21,831 nucleotides of DNA. It comes from a virus (Duplodnaviria; Heunggongvirae; Uroviricota; Caudoviricetes). Below, one piece after another: positions 1,415 through 20,361 of the stretch. Location: IMG/VR virus record IMGVR_UViG_3300042259_000129; one strand, 5' to 3'. The translations under genes were made by a program, and so were the position numbers. Positions within the stretch are counted from its first letter, which is position 1, and each line of letters begins with the position of its first letter. A model generated the notes under the pieces. It was not told the origin of the DNA. It did not search any database and was given only the letters and a program-made list of their open reading frames with translations.

Positions 1415-2576
1415 ATGAATATAAAACGTCCATATTGGATACATCAACTTTTTGATAATAATTTTCTGCACCAAATATATTTTCGCCAATAGCATATCTT
1501 GAAAGTACTGAAACAGAATTCTGATATGAATTTTCATGCATAGACTGTAGCATCATAAAAATATAAGGAAGATAAAAAACTCCAGCATCTAGTTCAGTTG
1601 ATCCTTTATATCCTACAATATATTTATCTGTATCCCAGAAAATATTTCGATAAATCTTCATTCCATTAATTGTTCCAGCAAAACATACACGCTTATCTCA
1701 ATCATCCTGAAAATCGTTAAGCAGAGAAACAGCAAACTGTTGAGATGATTCTAAACAAGTACAAACATTTGCATTAGCAATTACAAAGTTTCCTACCCCG
1801 TGATTAGTAAGAGTTCCAATTCTATTGGCCAATGTAATAATATAGGAGACAAATGAATTGTACTTATCAGACTTATTATCGCCAGCAACAGTAGCAAAAT
1901 CTAGAGAGTTTGATGTAGCTACTGTGTCAAGTTTGTTAATAACTTCAAGATCAATTTCTGTAGCAATTTCTCTAGCAATAGCATCCCATGTTTGCTCTCT
2001 TAGATTAAGACTATGCATAGCAAAAACATCCTGAAAAAGCTCTTCAGAGAACGATGCTCTAAGCTTTCTTGAAACCGCTTCTGCTTGTTTTTTCTCAAGC
2101 TTGACATTCAACTCCTTAATAAGAGTATCATCACCAATTCCTAATCCTATATTTGTATTAGAACCTAAAGATTCCCCGGCAGATGTAGAATAGGAACCAG
2201 TATAGGTGCTATCTGCCTTATTGAATCCAACTTCAGTATCTGTTCCCCCAGCATAAGTTCCACTGGCGTAATATCTCAAAGCATAATATAGGCCAACAGG
2301 ACCAGACAAAGGCTGAACACCTACAATTTCTCTGGCAATCAATCTGTCCCAAGTTCTCTTTGATAACCCCAAAGAGAGTTTTTGGTAAATTCCATTTGTA
2401 TCATTATCTGCAATTGTACCTAGTGCCCCAGTAGTATAAGAAATTGCCTCTTCTAGTGTAAAGGAAGGATTAAATTTTCTTATAGTTTTAATTGTATTCT
2501 CTAACAAAGTAGAGATTTCATTAAAATGTTTTGATTTTTGTTCTTTCTCTGTAAATAATTTTAAGATTTCAGACAT
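1413..2576 (-). CDS. gp23/gp24-family capsid protein, 387 aa (probably a vertex or minor capsid paralogue); joins track ORFs 1698..2576 and 1413..1661 through one TGA
   Basis: Motifs IAREIVGVQPLSGPVGLYYALRY, SRKLRASFSEELFQD, AIAREIATEIDLEVI, then DD(W)DKRVCFAGTINGMKIYRN and GYKGSTELDAGVFYLPY are all gp23-family hallmarks. GGAGG lies upstream and the gene ends in TAA. Confidence 0.88.
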
Positions 2577-2621
2577 GAGTTAAATTCCTCCAGAATTTTA
2601 TGATTCACTTGATGTTTATAA

Positions 2622-2635
2622 TATTTATATAAATA
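2622..2635. promoter_or_regulatory. Overlapping divergent late promoters (perfect palindrome TATTTATATAAATA)
   Basis: TATAAATA on + at 2628-2635 points to terL. TATAAATA on - at 2622-2629 points to the capsid gene. Confidence 0.75.
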
Positions 2636-2661
2636 AATCAAACTATGAAAAGGCTTTTAAT

Positions 2662-4767
2662 ATGTCAATTAGATACGATGATAAATTTGTAAAGACCCCA
2701 GGAATGGAAAATGAATATACACCTGAGATGATATCAGATCTTGTTAGGTGTTCAGAAGATGTTTTGTATTTTCTTAATTTTGTTACTATTGTTACTATCG
2801 ATGGTGGCAGGAAAAAATTAGGGGATCTTCTTTACCCATTTCAGAAAAAAATGATTAAAATGTGTAAAGACAATCGTTATTTGGTTTTCTTGTTCTGCAG
2901 ACAATCGGGAAAGTGCGTTTCTTGGGACACAAAAATAAAAATTAGAAACAAAAAAACTGGAATAGAGGAAGAACTAACTATTGGAGAATTTTTTGATAAA
3001 TTAACAATATCTTCTTTTAATATAGATGATAAATTTGTTGAAAAGCGTTTCTGTGAAGATTATGAAATATGAACCCCAGAAGGGTGAAAAGATTTTTCTG
3101 GGGTTGGCAAAACTATTGAATATGATGAATATAAAGTATCATTATCAAATGGTATAGAATTAATATGTGCAGATAATCATATTTTATTTTCAAATAATAA
3201 AGAAATTTATGTCAAAGATTTAAGTGCAGGCAATTTTATAGAAACAGAAAATGGTGATATAGAAATTTCTAGTATTGAAAAACTAAACACATTTTCTAAT
3301 ATGTATGATTGTTTAGATGTTGATGGGGAATGTTATTATACTAATGGTATAAAGAGTCACAATTCAACTACAGTAGGGGCTTTTGCTCTTTGATATGCAA
3401 TTTTTAATTCTGATAAATTCATCGGAATTGCATCTAATAAAGCAAGTTCAGCAAAAGATCTTCTTAGACGTATTAAGATTATGTATGAGGAGCTGCCTTT
3501 TTGATTAAAACCTGGGGTTATAGAATATAACAAAAATTCCATTGAATTTGAAAATGGATCTAAAATTGAAACTGCTGGAACAACTGAAGACACATTCCGT
3601 GGGAGATCCTGTGTTCCCAAATATACAAAAGTTTGTGTGTGTGATGATAATGGAGATATTTTTTATACAACCATAGAAAAAACAAAAGCAATTTCATCTA
3701 ATATAAATAGATTTATGGGAGATGAAATGAATTTCAAAAATACTAAAAAATATTATATGGTGTATAAAACGACAAATTTAATTAATGGGAAATACTATAT
3801 AGGGTTCCATTCTACAAATGATTTGGATGATGGGTATTTGGGGTCTGGAAAATATATAAGAAGAGCTATTGAAAAATATGGACCAGAAAATTTTAAAAGA
3901 GAAATTATAATGGTGTTTGATAATAAAGAAGATGCAGAATTATTGGAAAGGGAACTTGTGAATGAAGAGTTTGTTAAAGATAACTCAAACTATAATTTAT
4001 CATTGGGTGGTAATGTGTGTATTTTATGTGGAGAAGCAAATGGCTTTTATGGCAGAAAACATTCTGATAAAACAAAAAAGCTCATTTCTGAAAAATCTAG
4101 AAATTATAAACATACTCCAAAAGCCAAAAAGTTAATTTCTATATCATCGAAAGAAAGATGAAAAAACAATGAATATAGGGAAAAACAAATAAAAGCTCTT
4201 AAAAATAGACCTCCAGTAAGTAAAGAAACAAGACAAAAATTATCAAATAAATTAAGAGGAAGAAGACTTTCTTTAGAACATAGAAAAAATATATCTACAA
4301 GTAGACTTTTAAAATTTACAAACATGAATTTAGAAGAATATAATACATGATATAATAAAACATTTACAGAAGAAAGAAATAAAAAATTAAGTAACTCTTT
4401 AAAGGGTCATAAAAAATCAGATGAATGAGTTGATAAAATAAATAGAAATCCTGAAAAAATTCGAAAAACAGCAGAAAAACATAGGGGTATGAAAAGAAGT
4501 GAAGTAACTCGAAAGCGTATATCAAATTCGCGAATAGGAAAGGATGCCCCAAATAAGGGTAAAATTCATATATATAATCCCCTAACATTAGAAACTATAC
4601 AAATCAGTAAAAATCATGAAATCCCAGATGGTTGATTGAAAGGAACAGGGAAAAAGAAAGAGTCCAGAAAAAATACTATTTGAATTCATAATGTAAAAAC
4701 AAAAGAAATAAAAATGTATGATAAAGATAAAAACTTACCAGAAGGATGATCAATAGGAAGAAAGTAA
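2662..4767 (+). CDS. terL: Terminase large subunit N-terminal precursor, 701 aa: extein 1, mini-intein, extein 2, N-fragment of a split intein, GIY-YIG endonuclease; 10 in-frame TGA
   Basis: Continuous frame once TGA=W: YPFQKKM, Walker A RQSGK|intein|STT, AL(W)YAIFN, ELPF(W)LKPG, TFRGRS|CVPKYTKV, then the endonuclease, ending in TAA at 4765-4767. Confidence 0.9.
2914..3363 (+). mobile_element. Cis mini-intein (150 aa, no endonuclease) in the TerL Walker A motif
   Basis: Starts CVSWDTKI after RQSGK, has block B ICADNHIL and block F MYDCLDV, and ends NGIKSHN followed by the +1 Ser. Confidence 0.92.
3610..3690 (+). mobile_element. N-fragment (about 27 aa) of an atypically split intein
   Basis: CVPKYTKVCVCDDNGDIFYTTIEK is an intein block A directly after extein RGRS. 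The rest of the Hint fold is missing from this ORF. The right boundary is approximate. Confidence 0.8.
3691..3729 (+). promoter_or_regulatory. Late promoter inside an RBS/ATG-sequestering hairpin of the GIY-YIG gene
   Basis: ATTTCATCT (3691-3699) pairs with AGATGAAAT (3720-3728). TATAAATA (3702-3709) is in the loop, and the GGAG site and ATG 3727 overlap the 3' arm. Confidence 0.7.
3727..4767 (+). mobile_element. GIY-YIG homing endonuclease (Seg-like) with NUMOD3-type repeats, 346 aa from its own ATG; 6 TGA
   Basis: YMVYKTTNLINGKYYIG, YLGSG, YNLSLGG; repeats such as GRKHSDKTKKLISE and GMKRSEVTRKRISNSRIG; C-terminal IPDG(W)LKG and LPEG(W)SIGR. Confidence 0.9.
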
Positions 4768-5069
4768 TGGAAATATTAACACACAAAGGATTTAAACCAT
4801 TTGATGGGTTTATAAATCAAGGAAAATCAACATTGATAAAATTTGATTTATCAACCAATGAAACTATAGATTGCACACATAATCACAAATTTCTTTTGTC
4901 TGATGGTATTACTTTTAAAGAAGCTAAAGATATTATTGTTGGTGATATTCTTTTTCCAAAAACAACAGTATTAGAAAAAGAATATCAATGGGATGATATA
5001 GAAGTTTTCGACGCATTGAATGTACAAGACACACAATCATATTGAACAAATGGTGTAATATCACACAAT
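4767..5069 (+). mobile_element. C-fragment of the split intein (blocks B, F and G; terminal HN; +1 Cys at 5070)
   Basis: TIDCTHNHKFL (TxxH), VFDALNV, TNGVISHN-C. Confidence 0.88.
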
Positions 5070-6131
5070 TGTTCAATGCTTCTCCTCGACGAGCTAGCCT
5101 TCGTCTCAGATAACATTGCTAGAGAATTTTATACTTCAGTCTATCCAGCAATTTCATCTTCTGATGAAGCAAAAATTATTATTATTTCTACTCCAAATGG
5201 TGTATTCAATCTCTTTCATGAAATTTATTCTGGAGCTGAAACAAGTAAAAACGAATACAAGCATATGAAAGTCACTTGGGACATGATACCTGGTAGAAAT
5301 AAAAAATGAAAAGAAAAACAAATTAAAAACATGGGAAACATACAGAAGTTCAACCAGGAATTTGAGGTCGAGTTTCTTGGGTCATCAAATACCGTTGTTT
5401 CCACTGAAGCCATTGGATATATTAACACTACTCTAGAAGACCCCATTGCTATGGATCTTAATGAAAGACTTAGGGTTTATCTTAAACCAAAAGATGGAGA
5501 AAAATATCTCATCGGTGTTGATCCGTCTAAAGGATCGGGAGCTCATGATGCTTGTATACAAATTTATAGAATAGATTCATTTAAACCAGTAAAATTAGTT
5601 AATGCAGCAACATTCCAGTCCAATGTTACTGACACCTATGAACTTTCTTCTATCATTAATAGATTATCAATTTACTATAATGATGCTATTATCGGTATTG
5701 AGAATAATGCTGAAGGATCCACAGTTTCACAGAATCTTTGGTGGGTCTTTGAAAACCCAAACCTTTATAATTCAGGAAACAAAGAAAACGAGATTGGCAT
5801 TAGAGCAACTTCTTCATCAAAGACAAAAGCTGTTATTACAATGAAGAAACTCATTGAAGATGGATCACTAATAGTTAAAGATAGGGAAACAGCTAAACAA
5901 ATTTCAACATTCATTGAAAAAAACGGAAAATTTTCTTCAAGCGCAGACACCGGGGATGACCTTGTCTCGGCTCTTTATTGGTTATGTTTCCTTATTGATA
6001 CTCAACTTTTTGAAGATGATGTTGACCTATTTAAAAACAAAGAAGAAGATGAGGATGTATGAGGGATTCTAGCAGACATTGATGATGATCACTATCTTGA
6101 AAATGCAGACTGATCTTGAATGAACACATAA
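4767..6131 (+). CDS. terL: Terminase large subunit C-terminal precursor, 454 aa: intein C-fragment (101 aa) plus Walker B and nuclease domain; 5 in-frame TGA
   Basis: ATG overlaps the upstream stop (TAATG). MEILTHKGFKPF...CTHNHKF...SY(W)TNGVISHN|CSMLLLDELAF, IIIISTPNG, FNQEFEVEFLGS, IGVDPSKG, DDLVSAL; TAA at 6129-6131. Confidence 0.9.
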
Positions 6132-6165
6132 ATAATTATAATTCAAATTAGAAAGGAATTATAAT

Positions 6166-6600
6166 ATGAAAACATGTCTTGTTCACAGGGGATCAATGGT
6201 TACTGTCAAAGCAGGAAAAAACAACATTTTCAAAATCAGAATTGATCTACTCAAAAATCTTGTTTATAAGAAAAAAGAACTAAACAAAAAATTTCTTGAA
6301 TTAACTACATTAAAAGGGTTTTCCCCTGTATTACTAATCGAAGAAGAAAAAGTACCATCATTAATCAAAATCACACTTGAAGATGGTTTTGCATTTCAAG
6401 TTTCCCATGACACCAAACTTATCCTAGTCAACAATACAGCAGTCAAAGCAAAAAAACTCAATATTTCAAGTATATTATTTGGAAGAAAAAAGATTAAGAA
6501 TATTGAAGAAATAGTTGCTGCAAATGGATTTGAAATGTATTCTATTCAAATGAAAACATCAAATTCAGTATTCGTAGATGATATTGCTATTGAGCTTTAG
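6166..6600 (+). CDS. Free-standing degenerate Hint/intein-like protein, 144 aa
   Basis: Collinear resemblance to intein blocks: (C)LVHRGSMV, ELTTLKGFSPV, IKITLEDGFAFQVSHDTKLI, VKAKKL, EMYSIQM, SVFVDDI. The block B His and terminal HN are absent. The CDS is secure and the fold is a by-eye assignment. Confidence 0.6.
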   Translation: MKTCLVHRGSMVTVKAGKNNIFKIRIDLLKNLVYKKKELNKKFLELTTLKGFSPVLLIEEEKVPSLIKITLEDGFAFQVSHDTKLILVNNTAVKAKKLNISSILFGRKKIKNIEEIVAANGFEMYSIQMKTSNSVFVDDIAIEL

Positions 6601-6687
6601 ATTTCAAATTTAGATTCTAATCCACCCATAATAAATTATAAAATAATAATATAGAAAATTTTTTATATATATTCTATCAATGCATTC

Positions 6688-6753
6688 GGCAGGAAATTGA
6701 ACGTGACTTACCTAGACTAATTTAATCTAAGAAGAAACATTCAATTTCCTGCC
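6688..6753. repeat. 14-bp perfect inverted repeat (hairpin) between the convergent terL-Hint operon and the ncRNA
   Basis: GGCAGGAAATTGAA (6688-6701) and TTCAATTTCCTGCC (6740-6753). Confidence 0.85.
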
Positions 6754-6759
6754 AAACAC

Positions 6760-7297
6760 ATCCCGTTCTCATTACCCCACAAAAGAGCTTTGAAACAGTA
6801 TGCATTGCGGCGAGGTTCCTTATGTTTTCCTACGTTCTGTTTGGTTGATTAAGCCAAGTTCAGGTATGGTCTAGTTTGATCTGAACTTCTTGGGCATTCA
6901 TATGCTCCCAATCTACAAAACGATCTTCCCTTTCCCGTTAATAAATTTTGATCACTAAGAACACTAGCAAAAATCAAAATCGTTACAAGAAACTAGTACA
7001 GTCGGATTCTATCCTCTCCAGCAGATGGCTTTAGGATAACGTCTGCTGGGCATTTATGCCGGTGGCTCATGAAGGGATTGGACCTAGCATGAGTCAAATT
7101 GACACAAAAGTCACTCGCGTGAAATTCATACATCCCCTTTGGTTGCTTCAGGGGCGGATCTTGCATTGTCATTGACAATGGGACAAACATTTTATGAAGA
7201 AGTCGTCCTCACTCGGAAATATTTTACCAAGCGCTCACTAATTAGCTCTTAACCAACTAGCAAGTCCAAACTCTTAATTCCACCTATTCAAATATCA
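6760..7297 (-). ncRNA. Candidate large structured non-coding RNA (about 540 nt, or about 610 nt with the 3' hairpin); family not assigned
   Basis: Higher GC than its flanks and no credible ORF. At least 7 local inverted repeats (6856-63/6881-88, 6945-52/6973-80, 7018-25/7042-49, 7065-70/7088-93, 7134-38/7150-54, 7164-70/7174-80, 7238-45/7253-60) and a possible end-closing helix 7265-75 with 6783-94. Early-type and late-type promoters on the minus strand point into it. Ends are approximate. Confidence 0.65.
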
Positions 7298-7305
7298 ATT
7301 AAACT

Positions 7306-7390
7306 TATTTATAAAATAATTTATCTACTTCGGTATCAATTGTAAACAAAGAATTTTTAAGGTTTACAAGTTAAATTTCTCATTTATAAT
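7306..7390. promoter_or_regulatory. Divergent promoter cluster: minus-strand late (7306-7313) and early (TTTGTTTACA 7350-7341, 17 nt, TAAATT); plus-strand early (TTTACA 7363-7368, 16 nt, TATAAT 7385-7390)
   Basis: Matches the T4 early GTTTAC...TAnnnT consensus and the late TATAAATA consensus. Confidence 0.6.
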
Positions 7391-7431
7391 AAAAACATCT
7401 GGAAAACTCTAAAAAAGAGGATAAAATAAAT

Positions 7432-7499
7432 TATCTAACTATTTCAATAACTTAGGAATCCACCAAGTTTTATGAATATCTAATGATTTCAATAACTTA
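7432..7499. repeat. Two 23-bp direct repeats TATCTAAnnATTTCAATAACTTA with a 45-bp period
   Basis: 7432-7454 and 7477-7499 are 21/23 identical, in a non-coding gap. Confidence 0.8.
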
Positions 7500-7618
7500 T
7501 ATGAAAAATCCAGAAATTATGAAAAAACTGTGTATATTATATTAGTATTTTGAGAGTTTTTCCTAGTTTTCAAGATTTTTAAATTTTAACTAATAATTTT
7601 AATATGTTAGGAGACCAT

Positions 7619-8347
7619 ATGATCACAATGGAATTTCTATATGTAGAATACCTCAAAATGAAAGGAATTATAAATAATAGACCATATAGACTACCAAAGA
7701 ACCCTGATCTTTCATTAGAAAAGCTAAGACAATCTAATCAAGCTAACTATGACAAGATTAAAACACTCTCAGATTATTTTAATACCAAATGGCAAAATAT
7801 TGATCCAATCAAGTATCTTGAAACGGGGTTCAAATTATTCCCAAAATTCACTTATACGAATTTCCTCAATGATAAAATTTTAAAGCAGTACATTCAAAAT
7901 GATAAGATTCAAAAATTTCATTGTGAAGCATGTAAAAAACAAATTTTAAAAAGTTTTAAATTCATGAAAGGAATTCTAAAGAAAGATCAAAGGAATTCAA
8001 TATTAGAATATTGTAAATCTAAAAATGAATTTTCATTAAATGTTGTTAATGATTATATTCGGGGTCATATTGACCCTTATACATTCCTTTATTTACTACT
8101 TAAAAAATATATAATATTATCTATAGATGAGAAAGAAAAAATTTCAGATTTCTTAAATAATATATCAAAATACAGATCTTATGTAAAAGACGAATGGGAG
8201 TTATTTACGAAAATGGAAAAAATTGTAAATGAAAGTTTATTGATCACCGACCCACCCTCTGGTAACTTGATCTTAGGTGATAAAACTTTAGAAGAGATTG
8301 AAGAGGAAAAGAAAAAGTTTAATAAGATGAAGTTGTTAGAGGAATAA
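7619..8347 (+). CDS. Hypothetical protein, possibly a T4 gp59-like helicase loader
   Basis: AGGAG at 7609-7613 favours ATG 7619. Weak by-eye similarity to gp59 in FLYVEYLKMK and VNDYIRGHIDPYTFLYL. The function is tentative. Confidence 0.5.
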   Translation: MITMEFLYVEYLKMKGIINNRPYRLPKNPDLSLEKLRQSNQANYDKIKTLSDYFNTKWQNIDPIKYLETGFKLFPKFTYTNFLNDKILKQYIQNDKIQKFHCEACKKQILKSFKFMKGILKKDQRNSILEYCKSKNEFSLNVVNDYIRGHIDPYTFLYLLLKKYIILSIDEKEKISDFLNNISKYRSYVKDEWELFTKMEKIVNESLLITDPPSGNLILGDKTLEEIEEEKKKFNKMKLLEE

Positions 8348-8350
8348 TCA

Positions 8351-9052
8351 ATGATTAAATATGAAGGTAAGTTGGATAGTTTTGGTTTAGAATTTTGTTC
8401 TGGTGGAGAAGAATCACAATATAGAAACTTTATAAGGTTAGGATCATATTATTTTAGTATTCCTGCTATCATTAAACCAAAAGAATATAAAATGCATTCA
8501 CCAGCCGGAAATTATAGTTATTATGCACGCAGAGAATATGGTTTCTATGTTTTTGATGGTCATGTAATGATTAAATGGGGGGATCAACCAGATTATTTTG
8601 GAGAGATTAAGAATAACAATTATAAATCATTCTTTCTTCCTTGGACCCAATATACATTCAGACATCATAAGATATTTGATTTAAATCATAATGAACTTGC
8701 TGTAGAATATGGTAAACACATTGATAGAGATTGTAAAATATATTCTAGATTACCAAAAGTTACATTTATTCTTGAAGATTATGATGGTGAAGAAATTGAA
8801 GCTACATGCTATATTGAAGAAAGAATGTGGACTAAAGGCGAGAAATGGTGTTCTTGGTTAAAATATTTTACTAAACCTATTGTTAGGAGAAATATAGATA
8901 TAGAATTCAACAAAGAGACTGGTCCAAAAAAAGGTTCTTGGAAGGGTGGTATTATTGGTACAAGTGAAGAAATTGCGCCTAATGAAGCTCCAATAGAAGC
9001 TATTAGAAGATATTGTTCTAAACATAATATGATATATAAAGGAGTAAAGTAA
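8351..9052 (+). CDS. Hypothetical phage protein, 233 aa
   Basis: Long open frame tightly packed with its neighbours, AGAGG upstream, six Trp all TGG. Confidence 0.8.
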   Translation: MIKYEGKLDSFGLEFCSGGEESQYRNFIRLGSYYFSIPAIIKPKEYKMHSPAGNYSYYARREYGFYVFDGHVMIKWGDQPDYFGEIKNNNYKSFFLPWTQYTFRHHKIFDLNHNELAVEYGKHIDRDCKIYSRLPKVTFILEDYDGEEIEATCYIEERMWTKGEKWCSWLKYFTKPIVRRNIDIEFNKETGPKKGSWKGGIIGTSEEIAPNEAPIEAIRRYCSKHNMIYKGVK

Positions 9053-9660
9053 TGAATGACCCATCTGTAGAAGGTTTTATGGAACCGAGCGAATTAGTGG
9101 AAAATGAAACAATGGAATCAAATGATAATTGGTCATTTAAACCGGAAAAATCTAGATTAGTACGTCATGCTATGGACGAGCTTGATTATATCGGAATGAC
9201 AGAAAATAGTCCAGATGATATGAATCGTATGATGAGAAGGCACTTGATTCATATGGTTACTGAGTTTGCTAAAGAAGGACATTCTGGATTCAGTGCTGGT
9301 TATGCTATCACCGCATTAAATAAATTATTTGATTTCAAACCTTTAGGTCCACTTACAGGTAAAGATGAAGAGTGGAATGAAGTATCTGAAGGTGTTTGCC
9401 AGAATAAAAGATGTAGTACTATATTTAAAGATGATACCGGAAGGGCTTGTAATATTGATGGTAGAGTGTTTTGGGAATGGTATACTGATGAAAAAACAGG
9501 TGAAACATATAAATCATATTTCACAAATTATTATAGCAGATTACCGGTAGAGTTTCCTTATGATGTTCCTAATAAACCAATATATGAAGAATGGACCGAC
9601 ACATGGGAAGATATTAGAGACAATAAAGTAGATTGGTGGGAGCTGAAAAATGATAGGTAA
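9052..9660 (+). CDS. Conserved hypothetical phage protein, 202 aa
   Basis: Motif FAKEGHSGFSA...FKPLGPLTGKDEEWNEV...QNKRCSTIFK is recalled as recurrent in phages. The start overlaps the upstream stop (TAATG). Confidence 0.8.
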   Translation: MNDPSVEGFMEPSELVENETMESNDNWSFKPEKSRLVRHAMDELDYIGMTENSPDDMNRMMRRHLIHMVTEFAKEGHSGFSAGYAITALNKLFDFKPLGPLTGKDEEWNEVSEGVCQNKRCSTIFKDDTGRACNIDGRVFWEWYTDEKTGETYKSYFTNYYSRLPVEFPYDVPNKPIYEEWTDTWEDIRDNKVDWWELKNDR

Positions 9661-10168
9661 AATGTTCAAGAACTACAAGGAGAGAACAGAAAATCATATC
9701 AAGAATGTTCAAGATGTTTTTGAGTTTATTTTTTCTAATGAAGCAACAAAGTCATATTTAGATGATATGTTTATTTCGAAAACTGAACTTGAAGAACGAA
9801 TCGAAGCACATGATGAATCCAAATTTTCTATTGAAGAAATGATGGGCTATATTTTGATGACTGAGAAATATAATAGAAAGGTTGGGTATAAGTTTACACC
9901 TGAAGATGATACTATTATGACTAAAGCATGGGATCATCATAAATTCGTAAATAGACACCATCCCGAATATTTTGAAGATATCAAACAAATGATGTTTATT
10001 GATCTTATTGAAATGGTTTGTGATTGGGGAGCTATGAGCTTTGAATTCAAAAATTCCTTGGTCGAATTTAAAGATCAAAAGGCATATCCAAAATATAATT
10101 TTACAGATGAGCAGACAGCATTTATTGATTTCCTTTGTAATGAAATCGAAAGAGGATTTTTGAATTAA
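9650..10168 (+). CDS. HD-like protein (DUF5662-like), 172 aa
   Basis: ENHIKNV, AHDESKFS, WDHHKFVNRHHPEYF, DLIEMVCDWGA. Confidence 0.7.
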   Translation: MIGKMFKNYKERTENHIKNVQDVFEFIFSNEATKSYLDDMFISKTELEERIEAHDESKFSIEEMMGYILMTEKYNRKVGYKFTPEDDTIMTKAWDHHKFVNRHHPEYFEDIKQMMFIDLIEMVCDWGAMSFEFKNSLVEFKDQKAYPKYNFTDEQTAFIDFLCNEIERGFLN

Positions 10169-10171
10169 AAA

Positions 10172-10681
10172 TTGAAATTAAGAGAGGTATTAATGGGACT
10201 ATTTTCATTAACAGAGTTTGAGCGTTTTCTCCAGTTATCTAATTCATTCTCAGATATTGATCAAGAATTTTCTACAACATTTCCAACATTGGAAGTAGTT
10301 AAAGAGGATTCCCCTATCTATGATTTTTGTACTTTGTTTACAATAGGTTCTAAGCAGTTTAATTTTATTGCATATATTGAAGAAGGGAATATTTGGAAAA
10401 TTTCTTTTCATAATGAAAATGAATACAATAACATAAAGAATCTTACTAAAGAGCAGCTATTTGAGTATTATTATGGATTTTTAACTTCATTAAGAATGCT
10501 ATTAAAAGAAAAAAAGGTAAAAGAAATTCAGTTTATTTTCTTTAATAAAATGAATTGTATTGAAAGACTATTAAATAATACTCAAGTATTTAAATTTATT
10601 ATGATAGATTCAGGATACAAATATAGTAGAAATATTAATAGAGGGTCTATAAATCAGATTTCATATACAAAAACAAATTAA
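10172..10681 (+). CDS. Hypothetical protein, 169 aa (TTG start)
   Basis: Open frame filling the gap between its neighbours. No recognisable motif. Confidence 0.65.
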   Translation: MKLREVLMGLFSLTEFERFLQLSNSFSDIDQEFSTTFPTLEVVKEDSPIYDFCTLFTIGSKQFNFIAYIEEGNIWKISFHNENEYNNIKNLTKEQLFEYYYGFLTSLRMLLKEKKVKEIQFIFFNKMNCIERLLNNTQVFKFIMIDSGYKYSRNINRGSINQISYTKTN

Positions 10682-10707
10682 TAAATTATATTTAAGGAAC
10701 ATTTAAA

Positions 10708-11226
10708 TTGGACTTAAAAGTTAATATTAGTGAAATTATTCAAGGAAGTTTTTTAGATTATCCTTCTAAAGAGGATATTTGTTTGTCATTATATTTTGCT
10801 GGATGCGATGGGATTTGTCCACAGTGTCAAAATAAAGAACTTCAAGATCCTTTATATGGAAAGATATTTACATTATCTGAATTGATAAATATAATTTCCA
10901 TAGAAACAAAACGATATAGAACAAATAAAATTACTCTTTTAGGTGGTGATCCATTATTTTATAAAAATAGAGAATTTGTTAAAGAATTATTAAACAGAAC
11001 ATATACCAAATATGATTATTGTATTTATACTGGGTACGATGTTGAATATGTCAGATATAATAGAATTGAAAATTTTAAATTTTTAAAAACAGGGAGATTT
11101 GATCATACACAAAAACAACAATCTCTAAAGACAGATGATTATTTTCAGTTAGCAAGTAAAAATCAAAAAATTTACAACAGTGATTTTAAATGTCTTACCC
11201 AAGACGGTATTTTATATTTTAACTAA
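10708..11226 (+). CDS. nrdG: Anaerobic ribonucleotide reductase activase (radical SAM)
   Basis: FAGCDGICPQC (CxxxCxxC), ITLLGGDP, CIYTG, LKTGRF, ASKNQ; directly upstream of nrdD. Confidence 0.9.
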   Translation: MDLKVNISEIIQGSFLDYPSKEDICLSLYFAGCDGICPQCQNKELQDPLYGKIFTLSELINIISIETKRYRTNKITLLGGDPLFYKNREFVKELLNRTYTKYDYCIYTGYDVEYVRYNRIENFKFLKTGRFDHTQKQQSLKTDDYFQLASKNQKIYNSDFKCLTQDGILYFN

Positions 11227-18275: not shown

Positions 18276-18347
18276 TCCGGGATAGCTCAGTGGCAGAGCA
18301 AGCGGCTGTTAACCGCTCGGTCGTAGGTTCAACCCCTACTCCCGGAG
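18276..18347 (+). tRNA. trnN: tRNA-Asn(GTT), CCA not encoded
   Basis: Acceptor TCCGGGA/TCCCGGA, anticodon stem GCGGC..., loop CTGTTAA, T-loop TTCAACC; followed by G-CAA. Confidence 0.93.
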
Positions 18348-18356
18348 CAAAAACAT

Positions 18357-18432
18357 GGGGCCATAGCTCAACTGGGAGAGCACCTGCCTTGCACGCAGGG
18401 GGTTAGGAGTTCAAGTCTCCCTGGCTCCACCA
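18357..18432 (+). tRNA. trnA: tRNA-Ala(TGC)
   Basis: GGGGCCA/TGGCTCC with G3:U70, loop TTTGCAC-type (CTTGCAC), CCA encoded. Confidence 0.95.
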
Positions 18433-18440
18433 AAAAGTTT

Positions 18441-18473
18441 TTTGTTTACAATCTGTTTAAAGGAGAGTATAAT
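18441..18473 (+). promoter_or_regulatory. Early/sigma70-like promoter TTTACA-17-TATAAT
   Basis: TTTACA at 18445-18450 and TATAAT at 18468-18473. Confidence 0.65.
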
Positions 18474-18678
18474 GTCTAAGAATACTGTTGATCTTTATCT
18501 CAAAAATGGTTACATTCTTACTGCAGAATATGATGAAGATACATATTTTGAACTTTATGATAATTGGTATTCTGGTAAAGCAAAGATTTTACAGTTTGAG
18601 AATTGCTCAGTAAGGGCTGAAGATATTTCAGCAATTGAATGGGAACAGATTCCATTCTGTGAAGAAGTTGGAGAATAG
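18472..18678 (+). CDS. Hypothetical protein, 68 aa
   Basis: AAGGAG precedes ATG 18472, a better start than the track's TTG at 18442. Confidence 0.65.
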   Translation: MSKNTVDLYLKNGYILTAEYDEDTYFELYDNWYSGKAKILQFENCSVRAEDISAIEWEQIPFCEEVGE

Positions 18679-18721
18679 TTTTTGTTTACAACATGGTTAA
18701 TCCTTGATAAGAAGTAGATAT

Positions 18722-18808
18722 GGCCTCGTGCTGGAATAGGAAGACAACGAAAACTCAAAATTTTCGGCAGGAAAAAACTGCGTGTAGGTTCGAACCCTAC
18801 CGGGGCCA
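18722..18808 (+). tRNA. trnL: tRNA-Leu(CAA), long variable arm, CCA not encoded
   Basis: GGCCTCG/CGGGGCC, stem GAAAA/TTTTC around CTCAAAA, T-loop TTCGAAC. Confidence 0.9.
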
Positions 18809-18843
18809 CATTTTAGTTGAAACGCAATTTACTTTTTTAAAAA

Positions 18844-18890
18844 TATAAATAGATATTTAGGTTCAAACAAAGGAGAATATATCTATTATG
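18844..18890 (+). promoter_or_regulatory. Late promoter and start-region hairpin of the third endonuclease
   Basis: TATAAATA at 18844-51. AATAGATAT (18848-56) pairs with ATATCTATT (18879-87) just before ATG 18888, and AGGAG is in the loop. Confidence 0.6.
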
Positions 18891-19883
18891 AAATGTGAAT
18901 ATGGGTGCGGCCAAGAAGCTAAATATAAATTTAAAAATGGAAAATGATGTTGCTCAAAAAAATTTTCACAATGTCCTAATTATAGAAAAAAGAAATCAAT
19001 CTCGTTAAAAAGAGAACACAGAGAAGGCAAAAGAAGTTATTCTCAACTTGATGGAAAAAGAGAATGAAATAAGGGTTTAACAAAAGAAACAGATGAAAGA
19101 GTTGCTAAAGGTGCAGAAACATATATAAAAAGATATAATGCGGGAGAAATAAAACACCCACTAAAAGGAAAACACCTCTCTAAAGAACATAGAGAATCTA
19201 TTTCAAAAGGTAGAATAAAAAATCTAGAAGAATCTTCAAATTCTGGATTTGTTAAAACAAAATATTATAAAATATATTGTCCCTATATAGAAGATTATGT
19301 TAATGTACAAGGTACATGGGAGTTTAAGTATGCAGAATATCTTAATAAACAAAATATAAAGTGGGTCCATTCAAGAAAATACATATTAAAATATTTTAAT
19401 AAAATAGAAAGACACTACTTTCCAGATTTTTATTTACCTGATTTGGATGAATACCATGAAGTTAAAGGATGATTCATGAATTCAGATAAAGAGAAAATGA
19501 AGTACGTTATACAATATAATAGAGATAAAAAAATACGCATTTTACAAAAGAAACAATTAGAAAGATTGGGAATAGATTTAAATAGTTGTGTTGAATCTGA
19601 CGTTCATAGAAATAGAAATATCAAAAAAGAAAAAATAAAAATTTTAAAACACACAATAACATGAATACATGATAAAGCTACAGTTCTAAAATTAGGGAAC
19701 TTTAATAATAATTTAATAATCGAAAGAAGAGAACTATTAGATAAATCTGGAATAGATTTGACGAAATATGGTTGGGTAGATAAAGTTTCCAAATTATGAA
19801 ATTGTTCCCATACACAAGTCAAAAGGTATATGAATAAGTATTTAAAAGAATACGAGGTATATAGAAGAAAAACACAAATCTAG
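18888..19883 (+). mobile_element. Free-standing PD-(D/E)xK homing-type endonuclease inside the tRNA cluster, 331 aa; 5 TGA
   Basis: MKCEYGCGQEAKYKFKNGK(W)CCSK...QCP, (W)NKGLTKETDERV, KGKHLSKEHRESIS, QGTWEFKYAEYL, YFPDFYLPDLDEYHEVKG(W); TAG at 19881-19883. Confidence 0.82.
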
Positions 19884-19948
19884 TAGAAATATAAGCGGTG
19901 GAAGTCTAAAACGCTACTGGACGTAGGCCAGTATTTTCTACTTATTAC

Positions 19949-20023
19949 GCCTCTATAGTTTAACTGGAAAAACGAGGGATTTGTAACCCCTAGTTCACGG
20001 GTCAGTTCCGTGTGGAGGCTCCA
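19949..20023 (+). tRNA. trnT: tRNA-Thr(TGT), atypical T-loop
   Basis: GCCTCTA/TGGAGGC, loop TTTGTAA, T-stem CACGG/CCGTG around GTCAGTT, CCA encoded. Confidence 0.75.
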
Positions 20024-20025
20024 AT

Positions 20026-20101
20026 GTATCTATAGCATAATGGTTAGTGCACCGGACTTTCAATCCGGATTATGTCAGTTCGACCCTGACTAGATACACC
20101 A
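20026..20101 (+). tRNA. trnE: tRNA-Glu(TTC)
   Basis: GTATCTA/TAGATAC, stem CCGGA/TCCGG around CTTTCAA, CCA encoded. Confidence 0.88.
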
Positions 20102-20105
20102 ATTT

Positions 20106-20183
20106 ACCCTTGTAGTCCAACTGGAAGGAGACAGCAGCCTTAGAAGCTGAACAGTGTAGGTTCGAATCCTACCGGGGGTACCA
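20106..20183 (+). tRNA. trnL: tRNA-Leu(TAG) with a short variable loop
   Basis: ACCCTTG/CGGGGGT, loop CTTAGAA, 5-nt variable region, T-loop TTCGAAT, CCA encoded. Confidence 0.82.
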
Positions 20184-20203
20184 AATTTTTATGGATGGTC
20201 AAT

Positions 20204-20277
20204 CAGAGTGTAATGTAGTGGTTGCATCCGTGCCTTGGACGCACGTAGTGGAAGTTCGATTCTTCCCACTCTGACCA
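20204..20277 (+). tRNA. trnP: tRNA-Pro(TGG)
   Basis: CAGAGTG/CACTCTG, stem CGTGC/GCACG around CTTGGAC, CCA encoded. Confidence 0.92.
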
Positions 20278-20280
20278 AAA

Positions 20281-20352
20281 GCGGTTATCATATAATGGTT
20301 ATTATCTCAGTCTTCCAAACTGGAGATGTCGGTTCAATTCCGACTAACCGCT
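20281..20352 (+). tRNA. trnG: tRNA-Gly(TCC), CCA not encoded
   Basis: GCGGTTA/TAACCGC, loop CTTCCAA, T-loop TTCAATT; followed by T-CAA. Confidence 0.9.
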
Positions 20353-20361
20353 CAAAAATAA

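Follow-up and report, generated by a model that had tools for sequence, protein, structure and literature searches.

A phage terminase gene with a putative split intein whose short N-terminal fragment is in frame with a predicted GIY-YIG homing endonuclease

Two probable protein-level insertions in the terminase gene

We analysed the terminase locus of a tailed phage (Caudoviricetes; IMG/VR record IMGVR_UViG_3300042259_000129) in a stretch of 21,831 nucleotides (hereafter the window), which corresponds to bases 36754-58584 of the 133-kb viral record (31% G + C; 58% complete by CheckV). The gene for the large terminase subunit (TerL) probably carries two insertions at the protein level, a contiguous intein predicted to splice in cis (intein 1) and a composite element made up of a split intein (intein 2) and a homing endonuclease gene. 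In the composite element the short N-terminal intein fragment (IntN) is followed in the same reading frame by the nuclease, and the C-terminal intein fragment (IntC) begins anew in a different frame together with the rest of TerL. The same arrangement was found in a clade of related phage loci.

The borders of the insertions were determined by comparison with three related IMG/VR phages, L002, L003 and L004, retrieved with the host protein's C-terminal part (C-extein) as query. L002 (84% identity) and L003 (62% identity) have neither intein and read RGRAAAMLLLDE and RGRSLSLLILDE, respectively, across the second insertion site; L004 (85% identity) has intein 1 alone and reads RGRSVALLLLDE there. 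These stretches are of the same length as RGRS plus CSMLLLDE of the window and align with them residue for residue. The close relatives with empty sites therefore fix the junctions to the residue (RGRS-CS). An earlier annotation made from the letters of this DNA without database searches (the sequence-only reading) had pointed to related TerL loci as a check, and empty or singly occupied alleles were what the comparison returned. The PHROG TerL profiles also cross both insertion points unbroken, from position 169 to 170 at site 1 and from 363 to 366 at site 2. Judged by both the empty-site alleles and the profiles, removal of the intein 2 element restores a colinear host TerL.

Homing endonucleases of the GIY-YIG family are commonly found in group I introns of phages, and this general knowledge speaks for the alternative that the 1.46-kb insert at site 2 is removed at the RNA level, as an intron (group I or group II) with a homing endonuclease. 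However, a permissive Rfam scan (E ≤ 1) of both strands of 2400-7600 found no intron family, group I included, which bears out the earlier statement that no group I core is visible; the sole matches were two weak microRNA-like ones at 6676-6763. The ends of the insert are canonical intein ends (Cys1 at the start, His-Asn before Cys at the end), and both of its flanks are homologous to a solved split intein. Removal at the RNA level has next to no likelihood in our judgement.

Genetic code and layout of the locus

With the standard genetic code, the TerL region falls into short open reading frames (ORFs). With code 4 (TGA read as Trp), ORF1 (2662-4767) was open for 701 amino acids (aa) and ORF2 (4746-6131) for 461 aa, and the stop-to-stop ORF coverage of the 133-kb record rose from 78% to 89%. 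In the TerL genes of L002, L003 and L004, aligned Trp positions interchange TGA and TGG, and two positions pair TGA with TAT (Tyr). On the basis of the gain in ORF coverage and the TGA/TGG interchange, TGA was taken to encode Trp. No suppressor tRNA gene with a UCA anticodon was found on the 133-kb fragment. A cluster of eight tRNA genes (Asn, Ala, Leu-CAA, Thr, Glu, Leu-TAG, Pro and Gly) is located at 18276-20353 of the window. No second TerL gene was found in the 133-kb record, so that the interrupted gene has no visible backup on this fragment.

All features of the locus lie on the plus strand. TerL starts 27 nt downstream of an exact copy of the T4-type late promoter motif TATAAATA (2628-2635). 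The first part of the N-extein (2662-2913; aa 1-84; positions 102-169 of PHROG 5989, 'terminase large subunit') ends within the Walker A motif at ...RQSGK, where intein 1 (2914-3363) is inserted in the Walker A loop between GK and S. Intein 1 is the cis intein claimed in the sequence-only reading, a contiguous mini-intein of 150 aa with Cys at its start, His-Asn at its end and Ser at position +1. The second extein part (3364-3609; aa 85-166 of mature TerL), which matched positions 170-251 of PHROG 5989 and PHROG 2 up to 363, ends at ...TFRGRS and is followed by IntN (3610-3690), about 27 aa comprising block A (CVPKYTKV...FYTTIEK) and beginning with the Cys1 codon TGT at 3610.

From 3610 to 4764 the frame is open. 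After IntN it continues for 358 more codons, 12 of a linker and 346 of the predicted GIY-YIG/NUMOD3 homing endonuclease, which spans 3727-4767 from its own ATG and ends at TAA 4765-4767. The stop and the following start overlap as TAATG (4765-4769), with an A shared between TAA and ATG, and the frame changes by -1. IntC of intein 2 (4767-5069; 101 aa, with block B T..H, block F Asp and terminal His-Asn) reaches from ATG 4767 to the Asn codon 5067-5069. The C-extein (5070-6131; 353 aa plus the stop) begins with the +1 Cys codon TGT at 5070-5072, contains Walker B (LLLDE) and an RNaseH-like nuclease domain, and matched Terminase_6C and PHROG 2 from position 366. The exteins add up to 519 aa (84 + 82 + 353). 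ORF2 as such opens at ATG 4746; since dozens of homologues in the databases start exactly at the Met of ATG 4767, translation of the C-half most likely begins there. On all of these points the sequence-only reading was accurate: its coordinates and counts (frames, TGT positions, 346 aa, 101 aa), its mature TerL of 519 aa, its in-frame run from IntN into the GIY-YIG/NUMOD3 nuclease and its restart in another frame agree with the present analysis.

Identity of the second intein and of the nuclease

IntC matched PDB 6DSL chain B ('Consensus engineered intein CatC') with an E value of 4.9e-10 over residues 4-110, and VidaL more weakly. Cat is a consensus of the atypically split inteins AceL-TerL and GOS-TerL, which have an IntN of 25-37 aa and an IntC of 104-115 aa (PMC11766414). 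Intein 2 bears the marks of a class 1 intein (Hint fold), namely an N-terminal Cys with block A, blocks B and F, the terminal His-Asn and a +1 nucleophile. It is split between blocks A and B, with an IntC of 101 aa starting from its own Met, as in the AceL/GOS/Cat-TerL type; in one respect it departs from that type, in that its IntN is not a short free-ending fragment and its frame runs on into the nuclease. The proposal that the second intein is atypically split in the manner of AceL-TerL is upheld by the CatC match and by the position of the split after block A.

An exhaustive HMMER search with IntC as query returned 748 hits, many of which start at the residue equivalent to Met 4767. In the 19 IntC homologues that start at this same Met (alignment A2), T37, H40, D82, N101 and C102 are invariant, and the IntN Cys encoded at 3610 is invariant among 17 aligned homologues (alignment A1). 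There are also contiguous mini-intein relatives, such as P0046 and P0069, in which a short linker joins block A straight to IntC. Intein 1 matched an IntC profile of our own with an E value of 3.5e-11.

The window nuclease matched PHROG 314 ('homing endonuclease', 9.5e-48) and NUMOD3 (40.8-46.8 bits against a cut-off of 20.4), and weakly the DNA-binding domain of I-TevI (1I3J). Within its family of 17 members, SegE_GIY-YIG (PF19835) was detected in 14, GIY-YIG (PF01541) in 10 and NUMOD3 in 13. Exact-peptide scans of IMG/VR with the window nuclease and IntC found no near-identical relatives. One further candidate, LF82-1 (H12), was rejected as a TerL locus, its nuclease being located between two genes annotated as 'major head protein'.

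Conservation of the fusion between IntN and the nuclease

The sequence-only reading had counted the in-frame fusion among the less usual features of this DNA. It turned out to be shared by at least 22 protein clusters and 16 IMG/VR loci and to be conserved throughout most of one nuclease clade, 17 of whose 21 loci are fused. A word-based protein search with ORF1 residues 290-440 (the end of the TerL part, IntN and the start of the nuclease) found 22 proteins of about 400-850 aa that cover 91-100% of the query at 40-80% identity, all with the order ...RG.S, Cys-block A, linker, and GIY-YIG and NUMOD3 modules in one chain. Scanning IMG/VR with a profile yielded 80 loci; 16 of these have a single ORF for the N-terminal part of TerL, IntN and the nuclease, directly followed by an ORF for IntC and the C-terminal part of TerL. 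The 27 distinct fused linkers, measured from Cys1 to the first GIY-YIG strand, have 16 different lengths (38-58 aa) and are all in frame.

In a maximum likelihood tree of 28 nucleases, the clade of the window (support 97/98) contains 17 fused loci (the 16 from IMG/VR and the window) and four unfused ones, and its sister clade consists of seven loci, all unfused. In one of the unfused members, L009, the IntN frame ends at a TGA that overlaps the nuclease ATG; in another, L037, there is a single in-frame TAA after the promoter motif. The ratio of fused to unfused loci was drawn from this 28-locus tree only and is not an unbiased frequency, because the queries favoured fused forms.

The two-ORF layout also bears on the quality of the record, which is a metagenome assembly and could in principle hide one truly continuous frame at 4765, or a stop after IntN. 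Against such an error, 16 independent IMG/VR loci show this layout with an identical frame offset, and so do many protein clusters from other sources. Because it recurs in independent assemblies, an indel at 4765 is very unlikely, and the fusion is not a product of chance.

The junction on the C side is a short -1-frame overlap (ATGA, TAATG or similar) in 15 of the 17 fused loci, the window included. The fused relatives, in which TGA is a stop, mostly have ATGA or TAATG, and the window, in which TGA is Trp, has TAATG. We considered whether this junction is a programmed -1 frameshift at A_AAG_TAA (4761-4767) that yields a contiguous intein with a nested GIY-YIG nuclease, spliced in cis. A single slip of tRNA-Lys from AAG to AAA before the stop would reach the IntC frame exactly, and contiguous natural relatives with a GIY-YIG remnant do exist (P0023, P0014, P0095 and P0156). 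However, the junction has no canonical slippery heptamer, as the sequence-only reading had stated, and the codons before the stop in the relatives are non-slippery (GTA and TCA, for example). What is conserved is the ATGA/TAATG overlap and the Met that opens IntC. Since the pre-stop codons vary and the start/stop overlap is conserved, frameshifting is disfavoured, and we hold it to be a slim chance.

Among these contiguous relatives, P0023 (a whole TerL of 807 aa), P0014 and P0095 have block A and IntC separated by no more than the catalytic domain of a GIY-YIG nuclease, and in P0156 a GIY-YIG remnant is located at this position. A single-sequence fold of P0023 residues 160-425 was too poor to use (mean predicted local distance difference test score 37).

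Other fragmented forms were also observed. P0148, P0170 and P0133 are the opposite half-fusion, in which the C-terminus of a nuclease is in frame with IntC; this C-terminus is NUMOD-like in P0148 and P0170 and Vsr/DUF559-like in P0133. In L007, L017, L018, L023 and L057, the ORF after that of IntC and the C-terminal part of TerL has a further IntC-like match. Because such a match past the C-half is found in several loci, some TerL genes seem to be divided into at least three parts.

Expression signals within the reading frame

An exact TATAAATA motif is located at 3702-3709, 18 nt before the nuclease start ATG 3727, and a ribosome-binding site (RBS), GGGAG, lies ahead of this ATG at 3717-3721. 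An internal promoter and RBS for the nuclease had already been proposed from the letters alone, and both were recovered, with the octamer recurring in fused relatives. The motif lies in the loop region of an RNA hairpin within the reading frame (3691-3728; -12 kcal/mol, z -3.8), and only one of 200 shuffled sequences folds equally well. In the 3' arm of the hairpin (3720-3728) lie the final two nucleotides of the RBS as well as the A and T of the nuclease start ATG 3727. The window contains 14 exact copies of TATAAATA against 5.3 expected, several of them about 25-45 nt upstream of ORF starts.

Six of the 12 other fused loci parsed have the exact motif at the same spot, and most of the others have it with one mismatch. 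As the promoter octamer is read as protein, the fused linkers share a conserved peptide, ..(I/F)-I-N-(K/N)-S... A Met within 15 aa of the first GIY-YIG strand was present in 25 of 29 fused proteins; it has been lost in P0014, in which the nuclease is decayed.

Proposed mechanism and its weighing

We propose the following course of expression. The TerL gene of a T4-like phage, with TGA as Trp, would hold two insertions that are removed at the protein level. Intein 1, an ordinary contiguous mini-intein, would remove itself in cis. The region 3610-5069 would be a composite mobile element, in which a class 1 intein of the AceL/GOS/Cat-TerL type is broken between blocks A and B by the gene of a GIY-YIG/NUMOD3 homing endonuclease. 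As there is no stop between IntN and the nuclease, ribosomes starting at the TerL ATG should make one chain, composed of the N-terminal part of TerL, intein 1, IntN and the nuclease. The IntN of about 27 aa would then dock into the 101-aa IntC and splice in trans, giving a TerL of 519 aa with the junction RGRS-CS and, as by-products, an IntN-nuclease of 385 aa and IntC. Both the cis and the trans reaction are predicted from the sequence features described above.

The nuclease (346 aa) would also be made alone, late, from ATG 3727. Transcripts for the separate nuclease would lack the 5' arm of the hairpin, because they start at the internal late promoter; this separate late expression follows the reasoning set out in the literature on Aeh1 mobE and fractured genes. 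Given the open frame and TAATG, ribosomes that finish the N-half could terminate and reinitiate on the C-half, and production of the two halves would thereby be coupled.

Several points weigh against this proposal. The window nuclease taken alone scored below the Pfam GIY-YIG cut-offs (19-20 bits against 25 for PF19835, and 14 against 22.6 for PF01541). An assembly indel at 4765 was ruled out solely by comparison with other loci. The characterised IntN pieces of AceL and GOS are free peptides of 25 and 37 aa (PMC11766414), and IntN of the window would have to splice with a C-terminal extension of 358 aa. Unfused relatives exist (L009, L012, L024, L037 and the whole sister clade), and the fusion is therefore not required. 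Finally, the query spanned the junction and so favoured fused loci, which biases the fused share upwards.

The same observations bear on a more modest account, in which the locus is an ordinary fractured gene and the missing stop has no function. Active nuclease would then come from the internal ATG only, and the fused precursor would splice, well or poorly, regardless. The unfused relatives, which differ by a stop or a 1-nt shift within the 10-20 codons from the promoter to the ATG, are evidently viable, and the internal promoter, RBS and Met are conserved as expected if free-standing expression matters. Against this, the open frame has been kept in 17 of 21 members of the clade over end branches of about 0.5-1 substitutions per site, even though indels in the linker are numerous and AT-rich DNA readily gives rise to stops. 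By a rough estimate, a random frame would be the right one and free of stops over about 15 codons in some 10-15% of cases, an argument that is weakened by the ascertainment bias toward fused loci. We regard a read-through without function as rather unlikely. As to whether the fusion is adaptive or merely tolerated, the chances appear roughly even.

Comparison with known systems

Fractured genes were described by Dassa et al. 2009 in 26 loci, in which GIY-YIG or Vsr-like nucleases are located between the halves of a split intein (PMC2677866). In those loci, IntN is followed by a stop and a spacer of 27-51 nt, and there are overlaps of 6-69 bp at the start of IntC; one was a terminase locus, split after motif N1, with a long IntC of 122 aa (PMC2677866). 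A hairpin with TATAAATA that masks the RBS of the free-standing nucleases was also reported there, following work on Aeh1 mobE (PMC2677866). The locus of the window has the same components: two ORFs on one strand, a split intein that has an endonuclease gene between its halves, a TATAAATA hairpin upstream of the nuclease start, and a nuclease 3' end that overlaps the start of IntC. Like the terminase intein of that study, intein 2 is split after motif N1. The locus differs from those fractured genes (PMC2677866) in having neither stop nor spacer after IntN, so that the frame runs through the promoter, the hairpin and the RBS, all of which are translated. The sequence-only reading had regarded the GIY-YIG family as unusual here; since GIY-YIG is one of the two nuclease families already listed for fractured genes in 2009 (PMC2677866), it is the missing stop that is unusual.

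With AceL, GOS and Cat-TerL, intein 2 shares the phage TerL host, the short IntN and an IntC homologous to CatC, and Cys1 and Cys+1 are used as in AceL and Cat. Their characterised IntN pieces are free, whereas that of the window has a 346-aa nuclease at its C-terminus. In Aeh1 nrdA/mobE and the T4 seg/mob genes (cited in PMC2677866), a late promoter likewise lies in a hairpin that masks the nuclease RBS, and in nrdA/mobE the host gene is also broken into two cistrons. Unlike the window, the Aeh1 case has no intein, and its nuclease is a separate cistron.

Two published models describe how free-standing nucleases may become parts of inteins. Dassa et al. 2009 postulated a hypothetical step IIIa, in which loss of the flanks of the nuclease gene brings it in frame and recreates a contiguous intein (PMC2677866). 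The layout of the window is half of this step, completed on the N side only. Gosselin, Arsenault and Gogarten proposed that inteins are invaded by free-standing nucleases, which small indels later bring into frame (bioRxiv 10.1101/2025.01.02.630785). Their actinobacteriophage cases differ from the window in that the nucleases are out of frame or antisense inside contiguous inteins, and a half-fused split intein with a GIY-YIG nuclease is not among them (bioRxiv 10.1101/2025.01.02.630785).

A cultured phage provides a related example. In Escherichia phage kaaroe (Krischvirus, RB49 group; MN850574), a 'hypothetical protein' of 583 aa is made up of the N-terminal part of TerL, IntN and a C-terminal region, and, as in the window, this N-half is overlapped by the ORF of IntC and the C-terminal part of TerL. 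The coliphage differs from the window in its insertion site, which lies after Walker B (between IYIDE and C), and in its fused C-terminal region, which is not GIY-YIG-like and is taken for a putative nuclease.

The building blocks of the locus, namely the atypically split TerL intein, the intervening GIY-YIG nuclease, the late-promoter hairpin and the overlapping restart, are thus known. No published description of the fused IntN-nuclease state was found in the literature searched, which excluded the original AceL, GOS and Cat papers. Within the papers searched, then, the new feature is a nuclease fused to a short IntN as the conserved, clade-wide state of the fractured-gene layout.

Region downstream of the terminase gene

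A free-standing Hint-like ORF of 144 aa (6166-6600, plus strand) follows directly after TerL. It has a block-A-like start with Cys at residue 4 and a block-B-like SHDTKL, and it ends in ...IAIEL with neither His-Asn nor a C-extein. It matched our IntC profile (about 6e-10), had no match in Pfam or PHROGs, and is kept in L002 (7048-7521) and L004 (8385-8852); it may have originated as an intein that has since decayed or been domesticated. This ORF, intein 1 and IntC of intein 2 all match the same IntC profile, which suggests a set of three related Hint domains in a space of 4 kb.

The next stretch of about 0.9 kb (~6640-7550) is poor in ORFs in an otherwise dense genome, and 72-74% nucleotide identity is kept in L002 and L004. 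It contains a strong hairpin (6688-6752, z -4.8) and, on the minus strand, a copy of TATAAATA (7306-7313); its minus strand as a whole had no significant fold (z -1.2), and no Rfam identity was found for the stretch. At 7436-7585 there is an AT-rich element with an internal direct repeat, of which four or five other copies occur in the record (65-150 nt, 74-80% identity). This element sits upstream of the ORFs at 7604-11226, which, unlike TerL and several other ORFs, have no in-frame TGA. It may be a regulatory repeat of early genes, with code-neutral early genes downstream.

Implications

N-halves of this kind are at present annotated as 'hypothetical protein', as in phage kaaroe. The family described here comprises many natural, atypically split inteins in which a large cargo at the C-terminus of IntN appears to be tolerated, a property of interest for the engineering of AceL- and Cat-type inteins. 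To our knowledge, GIY-YIG domains are not listed among the nucleases embedded in inteins. The fusion fits a half-way stage in the models of Dassa et al. 2009 and of Gosselin and colleagues (2025), by which free-standing nucleases turn into intein domains. We tentatively suggest that selection may have maintained the in-frame fusion, which would be an extant transitional form on the way to inteins that contain a GIY-YIG domain. If so, the nuclease would stay attached to IntN after splicing and, with IntN bound to IntC, would form part of a 'bifunctional intein' of two pieces held together non-covalently, and the open frame with its stop/start overlap would be a translational coupling device that delivers both halves of TerL in each ribosome passage. 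The contiguous P0023, P0014 and P0095, with the GIY-YIG catalytic domain only, would then represent the next step.

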